A DNA stretch of 7,183 nucleotides from a virus (lineage: Duplodnaviria; Heunggongvirae; Uroviricota; Caudoviricetes): the IMG/VR virus record IMGVR_UViG_2537562173_000007; one strand, written 5' to 3'. Made by a program: the position numbers and the translations under genes. The notes under the pieces are model-generated. The model was not told the DNA's origin, did no database searches, and was given only the letters and a program-made list of their open reading frames with translations. Below are positions 1-7,183 of the stretch, piece by piece. Position 1 is the stretch's first letter; each line of letters opens with the position of its first letter.

Positions 1-1321
1 GATGGGACACACCGAAGGTGGTGAAGGGCGTGAGCTTCCTGCTCCGTCTGACCGTAACAGCGGACGACGGCAGTGAGCGACTGGTCAGCACGGCCCGGAC
101 GACGGAAACCACATACCGCTTCACGCAACTGGCGCTGGGGAACTACAGGCTGACAGTCCGGGCGGTAAATGCCCGGGGGCAGCAGGGCGATCCGGCATCG
201 NNNNNGTTCGCAGTGTGAACACCGTTGGCAAATCGGCATTTGTGGAGGCTGTTGGCCAGCCGAGTGATGATGCATCCGGCTATCTGAATTTTTTCAAAGG
301 AGAGATAGGGAAAACCCATCTGGCTCAGGAGTTGTGGACGCAGATTGGTAACGGTCAGCTTGCGCCTGACCTGGCTGAAATCAGGACGTCCATTACGGGT
401 GTCAGCAATGAAATCACGCAGACCGTCAATAAAAAACTGGAAGACCAGAGTGCGGCAATCCAGCAGATACAGAAAGTTCAGGTTGATACAAATAATAACC
501 TGAACAGCATGTGGGCCGTGAAACTGCAGCAGATGAAGGACGGACGCCTTTATATTGCGGGTATCGGAGCCGGTATTGAGAATACGCCAGCAGGTATGCA
601 GAGTCAGGTGCTTCTGGCTGCTGACCGGATTGCGATGATTAATCCTGCGAATGGCAACACAAAGCCGATGTTTGTTGGTCAGGGCGATCAGATATTCATG
701 AACGACGTGTTCCTGAAACGCCTGACGGCTCCGACCATTACCAGCGGCGGTAATCCTCCGGCATTTTCCCTGACACCGGACGGGCGGCTGACGGCGAAAA
801 ATGCCGATATCAGCGGTAACGTGAATGCGAACTCCGGGACGCTCAACAACGTCACGATTAACGAGAACTGTCGGGTTCTGGGAAAATTGTCCGCCAACCA
901 GATTGAAGGCGATCTCGTTAAAACAGTGGGCAAAGCTTTCCCCCGGGACTCCCGTGCACCGGAACGGTGGCCATCAGGGACCATCACCGTCAGGGTTTAT
1001 GACGATCAGCCGTTTGACCGGCAGATTGTTATTCCGGCGGTGGCATTCAGCGGCGCTAAACATGAGCGGGAGAATAACGATATTTATTCGTCATGCCGCC
1101 TGATAGTACGGAAAAACGGTGCTGAAATTTATAACCGTACCGCGCTGGATAATACGCTGATTTACAGTGGTGTTATTGATATGCCAGCTGGTCGCGGCCA
1201 CATGACGCTGGAGTTTTCGGTGTCAGCATGGCTGGTGAATAACTGGTATCCCACAGCAAGTATCAGCGATTTGCTGGTTGTGGTGATGAAGAAAGCCACC
1301 GCAGGCATCAGTATCAGCTGA
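1..1321 (+). CDS. J: Tail-tip host-specificity protein J (central tail fibre), C-terminal portion; 5' end lies upstream of the window; reading frame broken in coordinates by N-run 201-205
   Basis: Translation upstream of the gap ([40 protein letters not shown]...GQQGDPAS) and downstream ([17 protein letters not shown]...[30 protein letters not shown]...VDMPAGRG...[10 protein letters not shown]) closely matches my memory of lambda gpJ. Stop TGA at 1319-1321. The two ORF-track pieces (18-218 and 215-1321) are joined across the N-run. Confidence 0.88.
201..205. other. Run of 5 N (unresolved or masked bases) inside J
   Basis: Literal nnnnn in the sequence. Flanking translations are both J-like but in different frames (codon starts at 0 mod 3 before, 2 mod 3 after). 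Confidence 0.99.
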
Positions 1322-1340
1322 ATTTTATAACCCATATACG

Positions 1341-1367
1341 GGCGCCAGAAATGGCGCCTTTTTTATT
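1341..1367 (+). terminator. Rho-independent terminator downstream of J
   Basis: Palindromic GC stem GGCGCC (1341-1346) / GGCGCC (1353-1358) with loop AGAAAT, immediately followed by TTTTTTATT (1359-1367). Confidence 0.7.
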
Positions 1368-1388
1368 GCAGAAAAGCGAGAGGTAATT

Positions 1389-1988
1389 ATGCGTAAAGTT
1401 TGTGCAGTCATTTTGTCCGCAGCCATCTGTCTGTCCGTATCCGGTGCGCCTGCATGGGCGTCTGAACATCAGTCCACACTGAGCGCGGGGTATCTTCATG
1501 CCCGTACGAACGCTCCCGGCAGCGATAATCTGAACGGGATTAACGTGAAATACCGTTATGAGTTTACGGACGCGCTGGGGCTGATTACGTCCTTCAGTTA
1601 TGCCAATGCTGAGGATGAGCAAAAAACGCACTACAGCGATACCCGCTGGCATGAAGATTCCGTGCGTAACCGCTGGTTCAGCGTGATGGCGGGGCCGTCT
1701 GTACGCGTGAATGAATGGTTCAGCGCGTATTCGATGGCGGGTGTGGCTTACAGCCGTGTGTCGACTTTCTCCGGGGATTATCTCCGCGTAACTGACAACA
1801 AGGGGAAAACGCACGATGTGCTGACCGGAAGTGATGACGGTCGCCACAGCAACACGTCTCTGGCGTGGGGGGCTGGCGTGCAGTTTAACCCGACCGAATC
1901 CGTGACCATTGACCTTGCTTATGAAGGTTCCGGTAGTGGCGACTGGCGAACGGATGCATTTATTGTTGGTATCGGATACCGTTTCTGA
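1389..1988 (+). CDS. lom: Lom outer-membrane protein (Ail/Lom/OmpX/PagC family 8-stranded beta-barrel), lysogenic-conversion gene
   Basis: 199-aa ORF with SD GAGAGG 6 nt upstream of the ATG. N-terminal signal peptide (MRKVCAVILSAAICLSVSGAPAWA). Internal GINVKYRYEFTD and C-terminal AYEGSGSGDWRTDAFIVGIGYRF with terminal Phe match lambda Lom and the Ail family from memory. Position between J and stf as in lambda. Confidence 0.9.
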   Translation: MRKVCAVILSAAICLSVSGAPAWASEHQSTLSAGYLHARTNAPGSDNLNGINVKYRYEFTDALGLITSFSYANAEDEQKTHYSDTRWHEDSVRNRWFSVMAGPSVRVNEWFSAYSMAGVAYSRVSTFSGDYLRVTDNKGKTHDVLTGSDDGRHSNTSLAWGAGVQFNPTESVTIDLAYEGSGSGDWRTDAFIVGIGYRF

Positions 1989-2092
1989 CAACAGACGCCG
2001 ATTTATCTTCTGTAAATATTGTTATGATACGCAGGTTCATCCACTTTATGGGGTGAACTGCGTTTGAGGAAACGTAAAGTTACACTGTCCTG

Positions 2093-2127
2093 AAGCCCGT
2101 GGCGTCACTGCTGCGGGCTTTTTTTAT
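2093..2127 (+). terminator. Candidate rho-independent terminator downstream of lom
   Basis: Inverted repeat AAGCCCG (2093-2099) / CGGGCTT (2114-2120) around a 14-nt loop, followed by a T-run (ctttttttatt to 2127). Confidence 0.55.
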
Positions 2128-2139
2128 TGGTGGAAAAGT

Positions 2140-5100
2140 ATGACAGTAAAAATTTCTGGCGTGCTTAAAGATGGCACAGGAAAACCAGTACAGAACTGCA
2201 CCATTGTGCTGAAGGCCAGACGAACCAGCAGCACGGTGGTGGTGAACACGGTGGCCTCTGAAAATCCGGATGAAGCCGGACGTTACAGCATGGATGTTGA
2301 GCATGGTCAGTACAGCGTCACCCTGCTGGTTGAAGGTTTTCCGCCTTCACATGCCGGGACCATTACCGTCTATGAAGGTTCCAGACCAGGTACGCTGAAT
2401 GATTTTCTCGGTGCCATGACGGAGGATGATGTCCGACCGGAGGCACTGCGCCGCTTTGAGCAGATGGTGGAAGAGGTGTCACGTAACGCCTCCGCGGTTG
2501 CACAGAATACGGCAGCCGCGAAAAAATCAGCCAGCGATGCCAGTGCATCAGCCAGCGAGGCGGCAACTCATGCAACCGATGCTGCAGCCTCAGCACGTGC
2601 CGCCAGCACGTCAGCCGGACAGGCCGCGTCGTCGGCTCAGTCAGCGTCTTCCAGCGCAGGAACGGCATCGACAAAGGCCCGTGAAGCAGCAAAAAGTGCT
2701 GCTGCTGCAGAGTCATCAAAAAGCGCGGCAGCTACCAGCGCCAGTGCCGCGAAAACGTCAGAAACGAATGCCGCAGCGTCACAACAATCAGCAGCCACTT
2801 CTGCATCCACCGCGACCACGAAAGCGTCAGAAGCAGCCACTTCAGCACGGGATGCGTCGGCTTCAAAAGAGGCGGCAAAATCATCAGAAACGAACGCAGC
2901 CTCGAGCGCCAGCAGCGCAGCTTCCTCGGCAACGGCGGCAGCAAATTCTGCGAAGGCGGAAAAAACGTCCGAGACGAACGCCAGGTCTTCTGAAACGGCA
3001 GCGGGACAGAGCGCCTCAGCTGCGGCAGACTCAAAAACAGCGGCTGCATTATCTGCCAGTGCCGCGTCAACAAGTGCCGGGCAGGCCTCAGCCAGTGCCA
3101 CCGCCGCCGGAAAATCGGCAGAAAGTGCTGCATCGTCTGCTTCAACAGCCACAACGAAGGCTGGCGAAGCCGCTGTACAGGCCAGCGCAGCAGCGAGGNN
3201 NNNCCAAAAAAACGGCTGCCGCATCGTCCGCCAGTTCGGCGGCGTCATCGGCATCATCTGCGTCTGCTTCAAAAGATGAGGCGACCAGACAGGCGTCAGC
3301 AGCAAAGGGCAGCGCCACGACGGCATCCACGAAGGCGACAGAGGCAGCTGGCAGTGCGACGGCGGCAGCTCAGAGCAAAAGTACGGCGGAATCCGCGGCA
3401 ACGCGCGCTGAGACAGCGGCAAAACGGGCAGAGGATATTGCATCCGCCGTGGCGCTTGAGGATGCGAGCACGACGAAAAAGGGGATAGTACAGCTCAGCA
3501 GTGCGACTAACAGCACTTCCGAGTCACTGGCGGCAACGCCAAAAGCCGTTAAGGCCGCGTATGAGCTGGCTAACGGGAAATACACCGCACAGGATGCAAC
3601 GACAGCACAGAAAGGGATAGTTCAGCTTAGCAACGCGACCAACAGCACATCTGAAATGCTGGCGGCAACGCCAAAGTCGGTAAAGGCAGCCTATGACCTT
3701 GCTAACGGGAAATATACTGCTCAGGACGCTACGACAGCACAAAAAGGAATTGTCCAGCTCAGTAGTGCAACCAACAGCACATCTGAAATGCTGGCGGCAA
3801 CGCCAAAGTCGGTAAAGGCAGCCTATGACCTTGCTAACGGGAAATATACTGCTCAGGACGCTACGACAGCACAAAAAGGAATTGTCCAGCTCAGTAGTGC
3901 AACCAACAGCACATCTGAAATGCTGGCGGCAACGCCAAAGTCGGTAAAGGCAGCCTATGACCTTGCTAACGGGAAATATACTGCTCAGGACGCTACGACA
4001 GCACAAAAAGGAATTGTCCAGCTCAGTAGTGCAACCAACAGCACATCTGAAATGCTGGCGGCAACGCCAAAGTCGGTAAAGGCAGCCTATGACCTTGCTA
4101 ACGGGAAATATACTGCTCAGGACGCTACGACAGCACAAAAAGGAATTGTCCAGCTCAGTAGTGCAACCAACAGCACATCTGAAATGCTGGCGGCAACGCC
4201 AAAGTCGGTAAAGGCAGCCTATGACCTTGCTAACGGGAAATATACTGCTCAGGACGCTACGACAGCACAAAAAGGAATTGTCCAGCTCAGTAGTGCAACC
4301 AACAGCGCATCTGAAACGCTTGCCGCGACACCGAAAGCAGTGAAAGCAGCTAATAATAATGCGAATGGTCGGGTACCTTCTGCCCGTAAGGTGAATGGTA
4401 AGGCGCTTTCAGCGGATATAACACTGACGCCGAAAGATATTGGTACGCTTAACTCAACAACAATGTCATTCAGCGGTGGTGCTGGTTGGTTCAAATTAGC
4501 AACGGTAACCATGCCACAGGCGAGTTCTGTTGTTTCAATTACGTTGATTGGTGGTGCGGGATTTAACGTGGGGTCACCTCAACAGGCAGGTATATCTGAA
4601 CTTGTTTTGCGTGCAGGTAATGGTAATCCGAAGGGGATTACTGGTGCTTTATGGCAGCGCACATCGACAGGGTTTACAAATTTTGCCTGGGTCAATACAT
4701 CTGGTGATACTTACGATATTTACGTTGCAATCGGAAATTATGCGACTGGTGTAAATATTCAATGGGATTATACCAGTAATGCCAGCGTGACGATTCATAC
4801 GTCACCAGCATATTCTGCTAATAAGCCGGAAGGGTTAACGGACGGTACAGTTTATTCACTCTATACGCCATCAGAGCAGTTTTATCCGCCTGGCGCACCA
4901 ATCCCGTGGCCATCAGATACCGTTCCGTCTGGCTATGCCCTGATGCAGGGGCAGACTTTTGACAAATCTGCATACCCGAAACTTGCAGCCGCTTATCCGT
5001 CAGGCGTGATCCCTGATATGCGTGGCTGGACGATTAAGGGCAAACCCGCCAGTGGTCGTGCCGTATTGTCTCAGGAACAGGACGGCATTAAATCGCACAC

Positions 5101-5587
5101 CCACAGCGCCAGCGCATCCAGTACGGATTTGGGGACGAAAAACACATCGTCGTTTGATTACGGAACCAAATCCACGAATAACACCGGGGCGCATACGCAC
5201 AGTCTGAGTGGCTCTACGGGGTCTGCCGGTGATCATACTCATGGTAATGGTATTCGTTGGCCAGGAGGCGGCGGTTCTGCGTTAGCATTTTATGATGGCG
5301 GTGGGTTCACTTATGTCCAGGATTCACAGTATCAAGTAAGCCCGGGGACTTCTTCCCGTAGATCGTATTATCAACGTATTCAGACACAGTCAGCAGGTGC
5401 TCATACCCACTCGCTGTCTGGTACTGCAGCAAGTTCTGGCGCACATGCACATACTGTAGGTATTGGTGCGCATACGCACTCCGTTGCGATTGGTTCACAT
5501 GGACACACCATCACCGTTAACGCTGCTGGTAACGCGGAAAACACCGTCAAAAACATCGCATTTAACTATATTGTGAGGCTTGCATAA
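2140..5587 (+). CDS. stf: Side tail fibre protein Stf (lambda stf / E. coli prophage Stf family); frame broken in coordinates by N-run 3199-3203
   Basis: ATG at 2140 preceded by GGTGGA. N-terminus [26 protein letters not shown]...[14 protein letters not shown] matches the Stf N-terminal domain from memory, followed by a long Ala/Ser-rich shaft. After the N-run the gene continues in the frame of ORF 2426-5587 with [14 protein letters not shown] fibre repeats, the GAPIPWPSD...[30 protein letters not shown] collar segment, multiple HxH motifs and the C-terminus [11 protein letters not shown]. Stop TAA at 5585-5587. Confidence 0.9.
2500..3460 (+). repeat. Ala/Ser-rich low-complexity shaft region of Stf with degenerate short repeats (e.g. 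[12 protein letters not shown] / [12 protein letters not shown] / [12 protein letters not shown])
   Basis: Seen in the translation of the 2140 frame and, after the gap, the 2426 frame. GCN/TCN-rich DNA. Boundaries approximate. Confidence 0.6.
3199..3203. other. Run of 5 N (unresolved or masked bases) inside stf
   Basis: Literal nnnnn. Stf-like translation is in the frame 1 mod 3 before and 2 mod 3 after the run. Confidence 0.99.
3479..4345 (+). repeat. In-frame tandem repeat array in stf: 132-bp (44-aa) unit [44 protein letters not shown], six copies (3479, 3611, 3743, 3875, 4007, 4139) plus a degenerate seventh (4271 to about 4345)
   Basis: Copies starting at 3743, 3875, 4007 and 4139 are identical base-for-base by direct reading. 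The copy at 3611 differs only in its first ~25 nt and the copy at 3479 is more diverged. The unit resembles the known phage tail-fibre repeat motif ([24 protein letters not shown]). Confidence 0.93.
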
Positions 5588-6171
5588 TGGCATTCAGAAT
5601 GAGTGAACAAGCACGGACCATAAAAATTTATAATCTGCTGGCCGGAACTAATGAATTTATTGGTGAAGGTGACGCATATATTCCGCCTCATACAGGTCTG
5701 CCAGCAAACAGTACCGATATTGCACCACCAGATATTCCTGCTGGCTTTGTGGCTGTTTTCAACAGTGATGAGGCATCGTGGCATCTCGTTGAAGACCATC
5801 GGGGTAAAACGGTTTATGACGTAGCGTCAGGGGACGAGTTATTTATTTCTGAACTCGGTCCGTTACCGGAAAATGTTACCTGGTTATCGCCGGAAGGGGA
5901 GTTTCAGAAGTGGAACGGCACAGCCTGGGTGAAGGATACGGAAGCAGAAAAAATGTTCCGGATCCGGGAGGCGGAAGAAACAAAAAACAACCTGATGCAG
6001 GTAGCCAGTGAGCATATTGCGCCGCTTCAGGATGCTGCAGATCTGGAAATTGCAACGGAGGAAGAAACCTCATTGCTGGAAGCCTGGAAAAAGTATCGGG
6101 TGTTGCTGAACCGTGTTGATACATCAACTGCACCTGATATTGAGTGGCCTACGAACCCTGTCAGGGAGTAA
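5587..6171 (+). CDS. tfa: Tail fibre assembly protein Tfa (lambda tfa family chaperone)
   Basis: 194-aa ORF. Translation [54 protein letters not shown]...[47 protein letters not shown] is near-identical to lambda Tfa from memory. Its ATG overlaps the stf stop (TAATG at 5585-5589). Stop TAA at 6169-6171. Confidence 0.93.
6007..6134 (+). repeat. Direct repeat copy A (3' end of tfa), ~128 bp, roughly 85-90 percent identical by eye to 7056-7183
   Basis: agtgagcatattgcgccgcttcaggatgctgcagatctggaaattgcaacggaggaagaa...gttgatacatcaactgcacc aligns with 7056-7183 with scattered substitutions. Confidence 0.85.
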
Positions 6172-6225: not shown

Positions 6226-6894
6226 CTATTTTTTCCCTGAAGCGGAAAACATTACTACAGTACCTTTAACCTTGGTTTTAACATTCTCGAAATGCTCTGA
6301 GAGTATATGTGTTAAGCCTTCTTCGGAATCTTTTGTGTTTGAAAAGATGCCTTTCTGATTGTAAATGCGCATCAGTTTTTGACCGAAGCTATTGTGCACA
6401 ACTCCATCGCCAAGAATTGTGGCTCCGTATAGAGTTCCATCGTCAGTTAAGGCCTGCGCCGCATTGCGTATTACACAGCTTTTTGTAGATATATTTCCAG
6501 GCAGGCAGTGAAGAAGGTAAAACATGGAAATGGAATCAAATTGACCATGTAACGCCGCGGGATAAGGTTCAAAAACATCATGGCTAATTTTATGTTTAAT
6601 TTTTGATTCCCCAGCCCTTGTAGATGCCGCGTTCAGGCTAGCTTCGTTCAAATCCATTAAAGATATCAGACTACTCTCAGGTACGTGAGTAAGGTAAAAC
6701 CCAGTTCCAACACCAATATCCAGATGGTTGTTACCTACATGTTCCAGAAAGTGTGGAAGAAGGTGTTCCTTTGTAGGACATCCCCATGCAAGCCGATTTG
6801 ATACTCCCAAAACCCACCAGTCATAAAGCTTTAGGGTAAGTGGTGTGTAAATTTTAGCCCCATCATCTGTGTTTTTTTTCATTGATTTCACCAT
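6226..6894 (-). CDS. Class I SAM-dependent methyltransferase (Rossmann-fold), substrate unknown; prophage cargo gene
   Basis: 222-aa ORF on the minus strand. Motif I LDIGVGTGFY (GxGxG SAM-binding loop), acidic motif II (LISLMDLNEAS), FDSISMFYLLHCLP and DDGTLYGATI are typical of class I methyltransferases. Visibly AT-richer than the flanking tail genes. True start may be the second ATG at 6882 (MKKNTDDG...), which has a GGTGA-like SD. Confidence 0.8.
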   Translation of the reverse strand: MVKSMKKNTDDGAKIYTPLTLKLYDWWVLGVSNRLAWGCPTKEHLLPHFLEHVGNNHLDIGVGTGFYLTHVPESSLISLMDLNEASLNAASTRAGESKIKHKISHDVFEPYPAALHGQFDSISMFYLLHCLPGNISTKSCVIRNAAQALTDDGTLYGATILGDGVVHNSFGQKLMRIYNQKGIFSNTKDSEEGLTHILSEHFENVKTKVKGTVVMFSASGKK

Positions 6895-6950: not shown

Positions 6951-7183
6951 ATGCTGCCGCAGCATAGCGATATTGAAATAGCCTGGTATGCTTCGATACA
7001 GCAGGAGCCGAATGGCTGGAAGACCGTCACCACACAGTTCTACATCCAGGAATTCAGTGAGTATATTGCGCCACTGCAGGATGCTGTAGATCTGGAAATC
7101 GCAACGGAGGAAGAAAGATCGTTGCTGGAGGCATGGAATAAATATCGGGTATTGTTGAATCGTGTTGATACATCAACTGCACC
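6951..7183 (+). CDS. Short tfa-like ORF (partial, runs off the 3' end of the window): unrelated ~35-aa N-terminus fused to the conserved Tfa C-terminal segment
   Basis: ATG at 6951 preceded by AAGGGG (6941-6946), with an in-frame stop immediately upstream (taa 6948-6950). Translation [78 protein letters not shown] has a C-terminal part homologous to Tfa residues ~150-185. Not in the ORF track because no stop lies within the window. Confidence 0.6.
7056..7183 (+). repeat. Direct repeat copy B (tfa 3'-end homologue inside the second tfa-like ORF)
   Basis: agtgagtatattgcgccactgcaggatgctgtagatctggaaatcgcaacggaggaagaa...gttgatacatcaactgcacc aligns with 6007-6134. Confidence 0.85.

Follow-up and report, generated by a model that had tools for sequence, protein, structure and literature searches.

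Does the lom gene of this lambdoid prophage form a transcription unit of its own, able to speak from an otherwise silent lysogen, or is it an optional passenger of the late operon? Lom is cited as a moron-encoded protein expressed from the prophage (PMC3594210; PMC7067206), and the general definition of a moron includes a promoter and a terminator of its own (PMC3594210). A first-pass annotation of the locus had described lom as a moron unit flanked by terminators and lying between J and stf. The window, by which we mean the whole stretch of 7183 nt that was analysed, covers the tail-fibre end of the prophage. It begins with the 3' part of J (1-1321, plus strand), which encodes the receptor-binding C-terminus of the tail-tip host-specificity protein (Pfam: Phage_Tail_Tip and Ig_GpJ_C; annotated as gpJ in UTI89) and whose frame is interrupted within the window solely by a run of N at 201-205. 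This is followed on the same strand by lom (1389-1988, 199 amino acids) and a long stf that starts at 2140, so that the placement of lom between these two genes is borne out. Further along lie tfa (5587-6171), a class I SAM methyltransferase on the reverse strand (6226-6894) and, in the end region of the window, a second, partial tfa. A prophage adjoining ompW/yciE/trp in ExPEC strains (UTI89, NU14, APEC O1 and others) matches the window at 99%; the segment 1200-2300 is identical (100%) to E. coli UTI89, where the open reading frame is annotated as an Ail/Lom family outer membrane beta-barrel protein (WP_001233195.1), and the best phage match of the region is PhiR40_1 (96.7%). The identity of the lom allele is already known, and it is annotated in thousands of E. 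coli genomes. What goes beyond the textbook picture is the anatomy of the locus, namely the exact boundaries of the insert, an upstream terminator that comes from the backbone, the existence of two types of 3' spacer and an invariant fourth surface loop. In all likelihood, 1368-2128 is an accessory lom cassette that is docked right after a pre-existing J terminator and is expressed by Q-dependent read-through of the late transcript.

The boundaries emerged from a comparison with phages that lack the gene, for which a phage collection was queried with the 3' end of J joined directly to the 5' end of stf. In most lambdoid phages the two query ends lie about 1.7 kb apart and lom is present; in the seven lom-less records listed (3W, PhiR63_2, PhiR57_1, Lambda_ev245, Lambda_ev066, Tritos and ev207) they are about 1.03-1.05 kb apart, with a J-stf gap of about 60 bp. 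Thus, lom is an optional gene, which some of these syntenic related phages have and others lack. In the four lom-less junctions that were read (3W, PhiR63_2, ev245 and Tritos), the spacer runs from TGAATTTTATAACCC to GGGCGCCAGAAATGGCGCCTTTTTTATT and is followed by the stf ribosome-binding site TGTGGAGTGAATATG; in all four, its hairpin and T-tract are the element found at 1340-1367 of the window. In the window this T-tract leads instead into GCAGAAAAGCGAGAGGTAATT and the ATG of lom, and the terminator-like element beyond lom is joined through TTTTTTTATT to the stf ribosome-binding site (GGTGGA, which together with the start codon ATG at 2140 occupies 2129-2142 as read from the sequence). Since the lom-less phages have this very hairpin and T-tract as the spacer between J and stf, the upstream terminator can be assigned on comparative grounds to J and the phage backbone rather than to the lom unit. 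The inserted DNA mapped in this way, with boundaries at 1367/1368 and 2128/2129, would be 1368-2128, 761 nt in which lom is preceded by a 21-nt leader and followed by a 3' spacer and a single terminator. An imperfect 20-nt direct repeat of the form GC-T6/7-ATTG is present at both ends (1356-1375 and 2117-2136, at a spacing of 761). No isogenic pair with and without lom was found among the phages compared, whose J ends are only 57-79% identical, so that an insertion, as opposed to a deletion, is the presumed event. The unit that comes and goes thus appears to be leader-lom-terminator, promoterless and docked after a conserved J terminator. As an extra gene that is missing from related phages and carries its own terminator, lom is a moron in the loose sense, but the picture of a unit flanked by terminators of its own does not hold, for its upstream hairpin is the one that lom-less phages also carry.

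Examination of the two hairpins reveals that both have the makings of intrinsic terminators. The first-pass annotation had placed them, each with a T-tract, at 1341-1367 and 2093-2127, and we recover them to within 1 nt at 1340-1367 and 2092-2128. The upstream stem (1340-1347/1352-1359; GGGCGCCA/TGGCGCCT) has 8 pairs, 6 of them GC, closed by a GAAA loop, and the T-tract TTTTTATT (T6) lies directly 3' of it and reaches 1367; with its GC-rich stem, loop of 4 and T-run right after the stem, the site fits the anatomy of an intrinsic terminator. Its folding energy is -15.7 kcal/mol (z = -3.3), a stability equalled by 1 of 200 shuffled sequences. The downstream stem (2092-2103/2110-2121; GAAGCCCGTGGC-GTCACT-GCTGCGGGCTTT) has 12-13 pairs, 7 of them GC, a loop of 4-6, and a T-run (T7) to 2125 followed by ATT to 2128, where the insert ends on its right side; the site folds with -20.5 kcal/mol (z = -4.3), which none of 200 shuffles equalled. 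Terminator-like sites as such are found in the window at chance level (9 against 7.8 +/- 2.9 expected), and the two that flank lom are by far the strongest of the 9, most of the others having 5 pairs. In an alignment of 14 phage spacers the upstream helix is paired in 100% of the cells, with compensatory double changes at two pairs (G-C to A-U and C-G to U-A) and a G-U wobble at one, against pairing in 35-62% of cells when the register is slid by 1-3 columns. The segment that precedes it after the J stop (1322-1339, AATTTTATAACCC...) is conserved with and without lom: it is nearly invariant in the 14 phages while the neighboring J ends are only 57-79% identical, and hence this spacer also behaves as a conserved boundary beside a hypervariable module. 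Among 77 lom loci of IMG/VR, the upstream flank is intact in about 75, and hairpin, T-tract and leader are retained in every one of them; in one IMG/VR variant the upstream loop is inverted (AGAAAT to ATTTCT) on an unaltered stem. Downstream, the examined IMG/VR lom loci end in a hairpin and T-tract right before the ribosome-binding site of the next fibre gene, except for a damaged locus (L042) and one in which something other than stf comes next (L026); the hairpin occurs there with wobble variants and as two unrelated sequences of the same form. Together these observations indicate that both flanking hairpins are real and conserved as structures of the terminator type, with termination itself predicted. 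The J hairpin (1343-1352) and the start of stf (2152-2161) share 10 nt in inverted orientation; this was dismissed, as chance alone should yield about 0.5 matches of that kind in 1 kb.

The leader at the left end of the insert (1368-1388) leaves little space for regulatory signals. It contains the Shine-Dalgarno sequence GAGAGGT at 1378-1384, 5 nt before the ATG at 1389, in agreement with the earlier claim that lom has its own, and it is invariant in all non-lambda lom alleles. As there are only 21 nt between T-tract and ATG, 7 of them taken up by the Shine-Dalgarno sequence, a sigma-70 promoter cannot fit inside the insert upstream of lom. A promoter had been suggested for 1322-1388; both a consensus scan, which found no plus-strand sigma-70 site near lom, and a scan with position weight matrices (classical -35/-10 frequencies from the literature, with spacer penalties) were negative, these being consensus-based methods that weak, activator-dependent or non-sigma-70 promoters may escape. 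The latter scan covered 1150-1388 (-10 element between 1150 and 1383, that is, within 240 bp upstream) and gave no credible sigma-70 promoter, its best match (ATGACG-16-CAGCAT) scoring 5.8, as against 13.0 for lacUV5 and 17.1 for a consensus promoter, and lying inside J upstream of the terminator. Downstream of the upstream hairpin there is no -10 hexamer with the critical A2 and T6, and no PhoP-box-like GTTTA repeat was seen when sought by eye. Nor does composition single out the gene: its GC content is 52-57%, against 46-56% in adjacent J and the start of stf, so that lom shows no GC signature of horizontal acquisition relative to its flanks. Of the properties usually ascribed to morons, the locus therefore displays its own downstream terminator and a presence/absence pattern, and lacks a promoter inside the insert and an atypical composition. 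The morons of HK97 and HK022, as defined by Juhala et al. (2000) and by Cumby, Davidson and Maxwell (2012; PMC3594210), resemble lom in being extra genes between two tail genes with their own factor-independent terminator, and differ from it in that the insert in the window has neither promoter nor GC deviation and its upstream terminator belongs to the backbone.

The same general layout is seen in lambda, where lom (NP_040601; PDB 9wso chain C) occupies the same position between J and stf and is likewise arranged as hairpin and T-tract, short leader with a GAGAGGT Shine-Dalgarno sequence, lom, hairpin and T-tract, and stf ribosome-binding site. However, the J-lom hairpin of lambda is of a different sequence and much weaker (a 5-bp stem of about -8.1 kcal/mol, z -0.5), its T-tract is followed by an AT-rich TATTAT/TATAAA stretch that is absent from the window, and its 3' spacer is 70 nt long as against 157 nt. 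Given that the J-lom spacers differ, expression data from lambda are not simply transferable to the allele studied here. The lom loci of VT1-Sakai, BP-4795, CP-1639, PhiR40_1 and UTI89 share both the J-lom spacer architecture and the 21-nt leader of the window, and the Lom proteins of this group of lambdoid E. coli prophages, Stx-converting ones among them, are 83-97% identical to that of the window.

The protein itself belongs to the Ail/Lom family: residues 1-199 match positions 1-199 of the Pfam profile Ail_Lom (PF06316) at 419.1 bits against a cut-off of 23, and this full-length match, the homology to lambda Lom and the UTI89 annotation agree with the reading of the frame as lom. Members of the family abound in E. 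coli, where single 90% clusters comprise up to about 25,000 sequences. As read from the sequence, Lom starts with a Sec signal peptide (residues 1-24, MRKVCAVILSAAICLSVSGAPAWA|SEH, with the AxA site ...AWA|SEH; helix 2-18 in the model) and ends in ...GIGYRF with a terminal phenylalanine, the beta-signal for the BAM complex. Sequence searches of the PDB recovered lambda Lom (9wso; E = 9e-48), and Ail and OmpX over residues 26-199 (E about 1e-19 to 1e-20); neither the lambda J nor the lambda Stf sequence, both tried as possible partners of Lom in that structure, matches 9wso. An AlphaFold2 model from a 23-sequence alignment contains the signal-peptide helix and eight strands (31-37, 52-60, 65-81, 86-106, 111-135, 141-166, 172-182 and 187-198) joined by short periplasmic turns, at moderate confidence (pLDDT 61; 70-86 over residues 80-170 and below 50 in the N-terminal third). 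Its top Foldseek matches are Ail (3qrc) and OmpX (1qj9), with E 6e-10 to 1e-9 and probability 1.0. Lom is thus predicted to be an eight-stranded outer membrane beta-barrel of the Ail/OmpX type; the first-pass annotation had named the absence of such a fold as an argument against its proposal, and structure prediction returns the barrel. Ail of Yersinia, OmpX of E. coli and Rck/PagC of Salmonella share the fold and family clan with Lom at only about 30% identity, and the long protruding β3-β4 and β5-β6 hairpins are common to Lom and the Ail/OmpX-type barrels. Ail, OmpX and Rck/PagC are virulence-associated and chromosomal or plasmid-borne, whereas Lom is phage-borne in the late operon and has a much longer L3 region. 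With the NCBIfam equivalog model for Rck-type resistance to complement killing the Lom of the window scores 112 bits (cut-off 258), and with that for OmpX 99 bits (cut-off 176), short of the threshold in both cases.

Compared with lambda Lom (206 amino acids, the same family and length class), the protein is 42% identical overall, 57% in the barrel core and turns and 29% in the external regions (Fisher p = 4e-4), where the boundaries between loops and strands come from the moderate-confidence AlphaFold2 model and the OmpX/Ail topology. The suggestion that the two proteins have diverged in their surface loops stands for L1, L2 and L3 (23%, 18% and 25% identity, L1 being 8 residues shorter than in lambda) and fails for L4 (GSGDWRT), which is 100% identical. 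Divergence also extends beyond the loops to strands β1 and β3, while L4 and strands β2, β5, β7 and β8 are conserved at 70-100%. Between lom alleles more generally, L1-L3 are mosaic and variable.

In light of the above anatomy, the best-supported way for lom to be expressed is late read-through under antitermination by Q. It is established from lambda that the Q-modified late transcription complex ignores intrinsic terminators. During lytic growth such a complex would read through both hairpins and produce J, lom, stf and tfa as one transcript, and Lom would be made along with the tail genes, which fits the strong late expression reported for lom of lambda. The protein would then be exported by Sec and inserted into the outer membrane by BAM, as its signal peptide, barrel and C-terminal phenylalanine suggest, and its long variable loops L1-L3 would be displayed at the cell surface. 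As long as the prophage is repressed, both terminators may serve to insulate lom from neighboring transcription. Because the cassette is without its own promoter, expression in the lysogen, if it occurs, needs either read-through or an outside promoter, a weak or atypical one that would overlap the terminator or the 3' end of J. This anatomy bears on an old loose end, in that a lom promoter was never characterised, and on a role that was recently suggested for Lom, namely that it benefits the phage at a late stage of infection, instead of or besides the lysogen.

We consider it unlikely that lom is an autonomous moron with its own sigma-70 promoter in 1322-1388, transcribed in the repressed prophage independently of the late genes and including both hairpins. 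The appeal of that reading lies in the literature: lambda lom is reported, in the statements given by PMC3594210 and PMC7067206, to be expressed in lysogens, the general moron definition cited above leads one to expect a promoter, and in Phi24B, where the gene has a different context, lom expression is the same in lysogens as in induced cells (PMC3342100); this independence of induction argues that some lom genes are expressed autonomously. The record for lambda is mixed, as lom went undetected in one array study, which also treats its promoter as uncharacterised (PMC2147009), and is cited as showing strong expression at a late stage of lytic growth (PMC9836094; PMC12366544). For the present allele, an upstream hairpin that is unchanged in lom-less phages, the 21 nt from T-tract to ATG with no suitable -10 hexamer past the hairpin, a best promoter score far below lacUV5 at a site inside J and ahead of the terminator, an ordinary GC content and a J-lom spacer unlike that of lambda all speak against it. 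A different view would regard the hairpins mainly as boundary or recombination sequences of exchangeable modules (the J C-terminus, lom and stf), or as stabilisers or processing sites for mRNA 3' ends in the late transcript. This draws on the near-invariance of spacer and hairpin beside divergent J ends, on insert boundaries that fall exactly at the two T-tracts within an imperfect direct repeat, on the loop-inversion variant, which is typical of palindrome-mediated events, and on the fact, familiar from lambda, that Q-antiterminated late transcription renders termination irrelevant in lytic growth. Yet both elements have the full anatomy of intrinsic terminators, with a T-run of at least 6, compensatory changes keep the pairing rather than the sequence, and two unrelated downstream sequences converge on hairpin and T-tract, which argues for selection on termination. 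While compatible with the late-operon cassette that we favor, a boundary or stabilising role as the main function of the hairpins is thus unlikely.

The purpose of the protein is a separate matter, and by analogy Lom might act at the surface either in adhesion or serum resistance, as Ail, Rck and PagC do, or in blocking phage adsorption, as over-expressed lambda Lom does. It is conceivable, if doubtful, that Lom is primarily a lytic-phase protein for the benefit of the phage, which for instance stops progeny or superinfecting phages from adsorbing to infected cells and debris, rather than a virulence factor of lysogenic conversion; it is encoded between two receptor-binding genes and would be expressed by late read-through. 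Consistent with this, over-expressed lambda Lom gives strong lambda-specific protection, blocking lambda-vir and not T7, and its expression rises sharply late (as given in PMC12366544); the promoterless state of the present cassette and the variability of L1-L3 between alleles also fit. On the other hand, protection is seen on over-expression only, lambda lysogens being unprotected from lambda-vir (PMC12366544), lom is non-essential for plaque formation (PMC10695390), linkage would confound any association with J type, and for lambda Lom a role in adhesion to buccal cells has been reported (Vica Pacheco 1997, as cited in PMC3594210 and PMC7067206). A more elaborate proposal, which we regard as improbable, combines a promoterless cassette at a J-terminator "landing site" and a Lom that is essentially late-only and lytic-phase, for example masking receptors and sparing progeny on lysing cells, with a possible small RNA of about 90 nt that is expressed from the prophage and rides on the lom terminator.

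The last of these elements takes its cue from the 3' side of the late-operon cassette, where two unrelated types of spacer separate lom from stf. The 70-nt lambda type is found in lambda, Stx phages and most IMG/VR loci, and the 157-nt long type in the window, PhiR40_1, PhiR49_2, 569R4, PhiR5_1 and P-EibA. The long spacer goes with a Lom C-terminus reading ...AFIVGIGYRF and the other type, carried by most Stx-phage alleles, with ...GFIVGVGYKF; this pairing of spacer with C-terminus points to a recombination breakpoint inside lom. The extra segment of the long type (1989-2091, of which about 100 nt are additional) occurs in only 5 phage records and always after lom, and the idea that it is an independent mobile module was rejected, as it is never seen without lom in those 5 records. 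A search of 1100-2400 against Rfam at E<=1 gave no match. A small RNA of Phi24B, 24B_1, is described as lying downstream of lom, in a 428-bp region of a podovirus (PMC4426718); given this different context, it is not a comparable counterpart. Within the long spacer, an extended -10-like sequence TGTTATGAT (2020-2028) with a -35-like TTTATC (2002-2007) scores 7.9 with the position weight matrix, which places it in the top 10 on the plus strand of the window, about 0.2 such sites being expected by chance at this spacer size. It is followed directly by a 13-bp hairpin (2029-2063), and together with the shared terminator (2092-2128) the extra 100 nt look like a small-RNA gene, which we put forward as an unproven lead. 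At the position of TGTTATGAT, PhiR5_1 and P-EibA have a perfect TGTTATAAT.

In the 157-nt long-type version of the spacer directly 3' of lom, which is found in this prophage, the segment 1989-2091 contains an extended -10-like element on the plus strand (TGTTATGAT, 2020-2028), which is followed on the same strand by a 13-bp hairpin (2029-2063) and, after a linker of about 28 nt, by the terminator that ends at 2128. At the position of the -10-like element, PhiR5_1 and P-EibA instead have a perfect TGTTATAAT. The resulting layout of about 90 nt is sRNA-like; a search of Rfam with the surrounding region (1100-2400) gave no match. The long-type spacer was recovered from only 5 phage records, and in each of them it lies directly 3' of lom.

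On the other side of lom, the J terminator hairpin occurs in a variant form, seen among the upstream spacers of the compared loci L016-L095, in which AGAAAT, the closing pair and loop, is turned round to ATTTCT while the stem is preserved; seven loci with GGGCGCCATTTCTGGCGCC are an example. Such a variant points to template switching at the hairpin or to an inversion mediated by the palindrome. The last 280 nt of J in the four lom-less phages examined (L004-L007) differ from those of all the lom-containing phages compared, with 57-79% identity. It is possible that the receptor-binding type of J is associated with the presence of lom, in a sample that is small and confounded by linkage. As for the lom product itself, the structure of lambda Lom has been solved with its full 206-aa sequence as chain C of PDB entry 9wso, which has two chains; lambda J and Stf are absent from this entry. 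All of lom is also spanned by an antisense ORF of 225 aa (1314-1991, minus strand), which is most probably not a gene but a shadow ORF of the kind commonly seen opposite GC-rich coding sequence.

Comparison with the prophage of the ExPEC strain UTI89 shows that two 5-nt N-runs, at 201-205 in J and 3199-3203 in stf, replace 246 nt and 65 nt of real sequence, respectively. Thus, the frame breaks that the ORF list appears to show in J and in stf are masking artefacts. Within stf, a 132-bp (44-aa) tandem repeat is present in 6.4 copies with a 94% match (3477-4320), and the window is longer than UTI89 here by about 3 copies (396 nt), indicating that the repeat number of this side tail fibre gene is polymorphic between strains.

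Further downstream, a gene for a class I SAM-dependent methyltransferase (222 aa; 6226-6894, minus strand; Pfam: Methyltransf_12/23/25), with a GC content of about 43%, is flanked by tfa and a partial second copy of tfa (7054-7183), the latter being annotated in UTI89 as a tail fibre assembly pseudogene. This methyltransferase gene has the look of a further cargo insertion at the end of the prophage; a direct repeat of the tfa 3' end flanks it, with one copy on each side.
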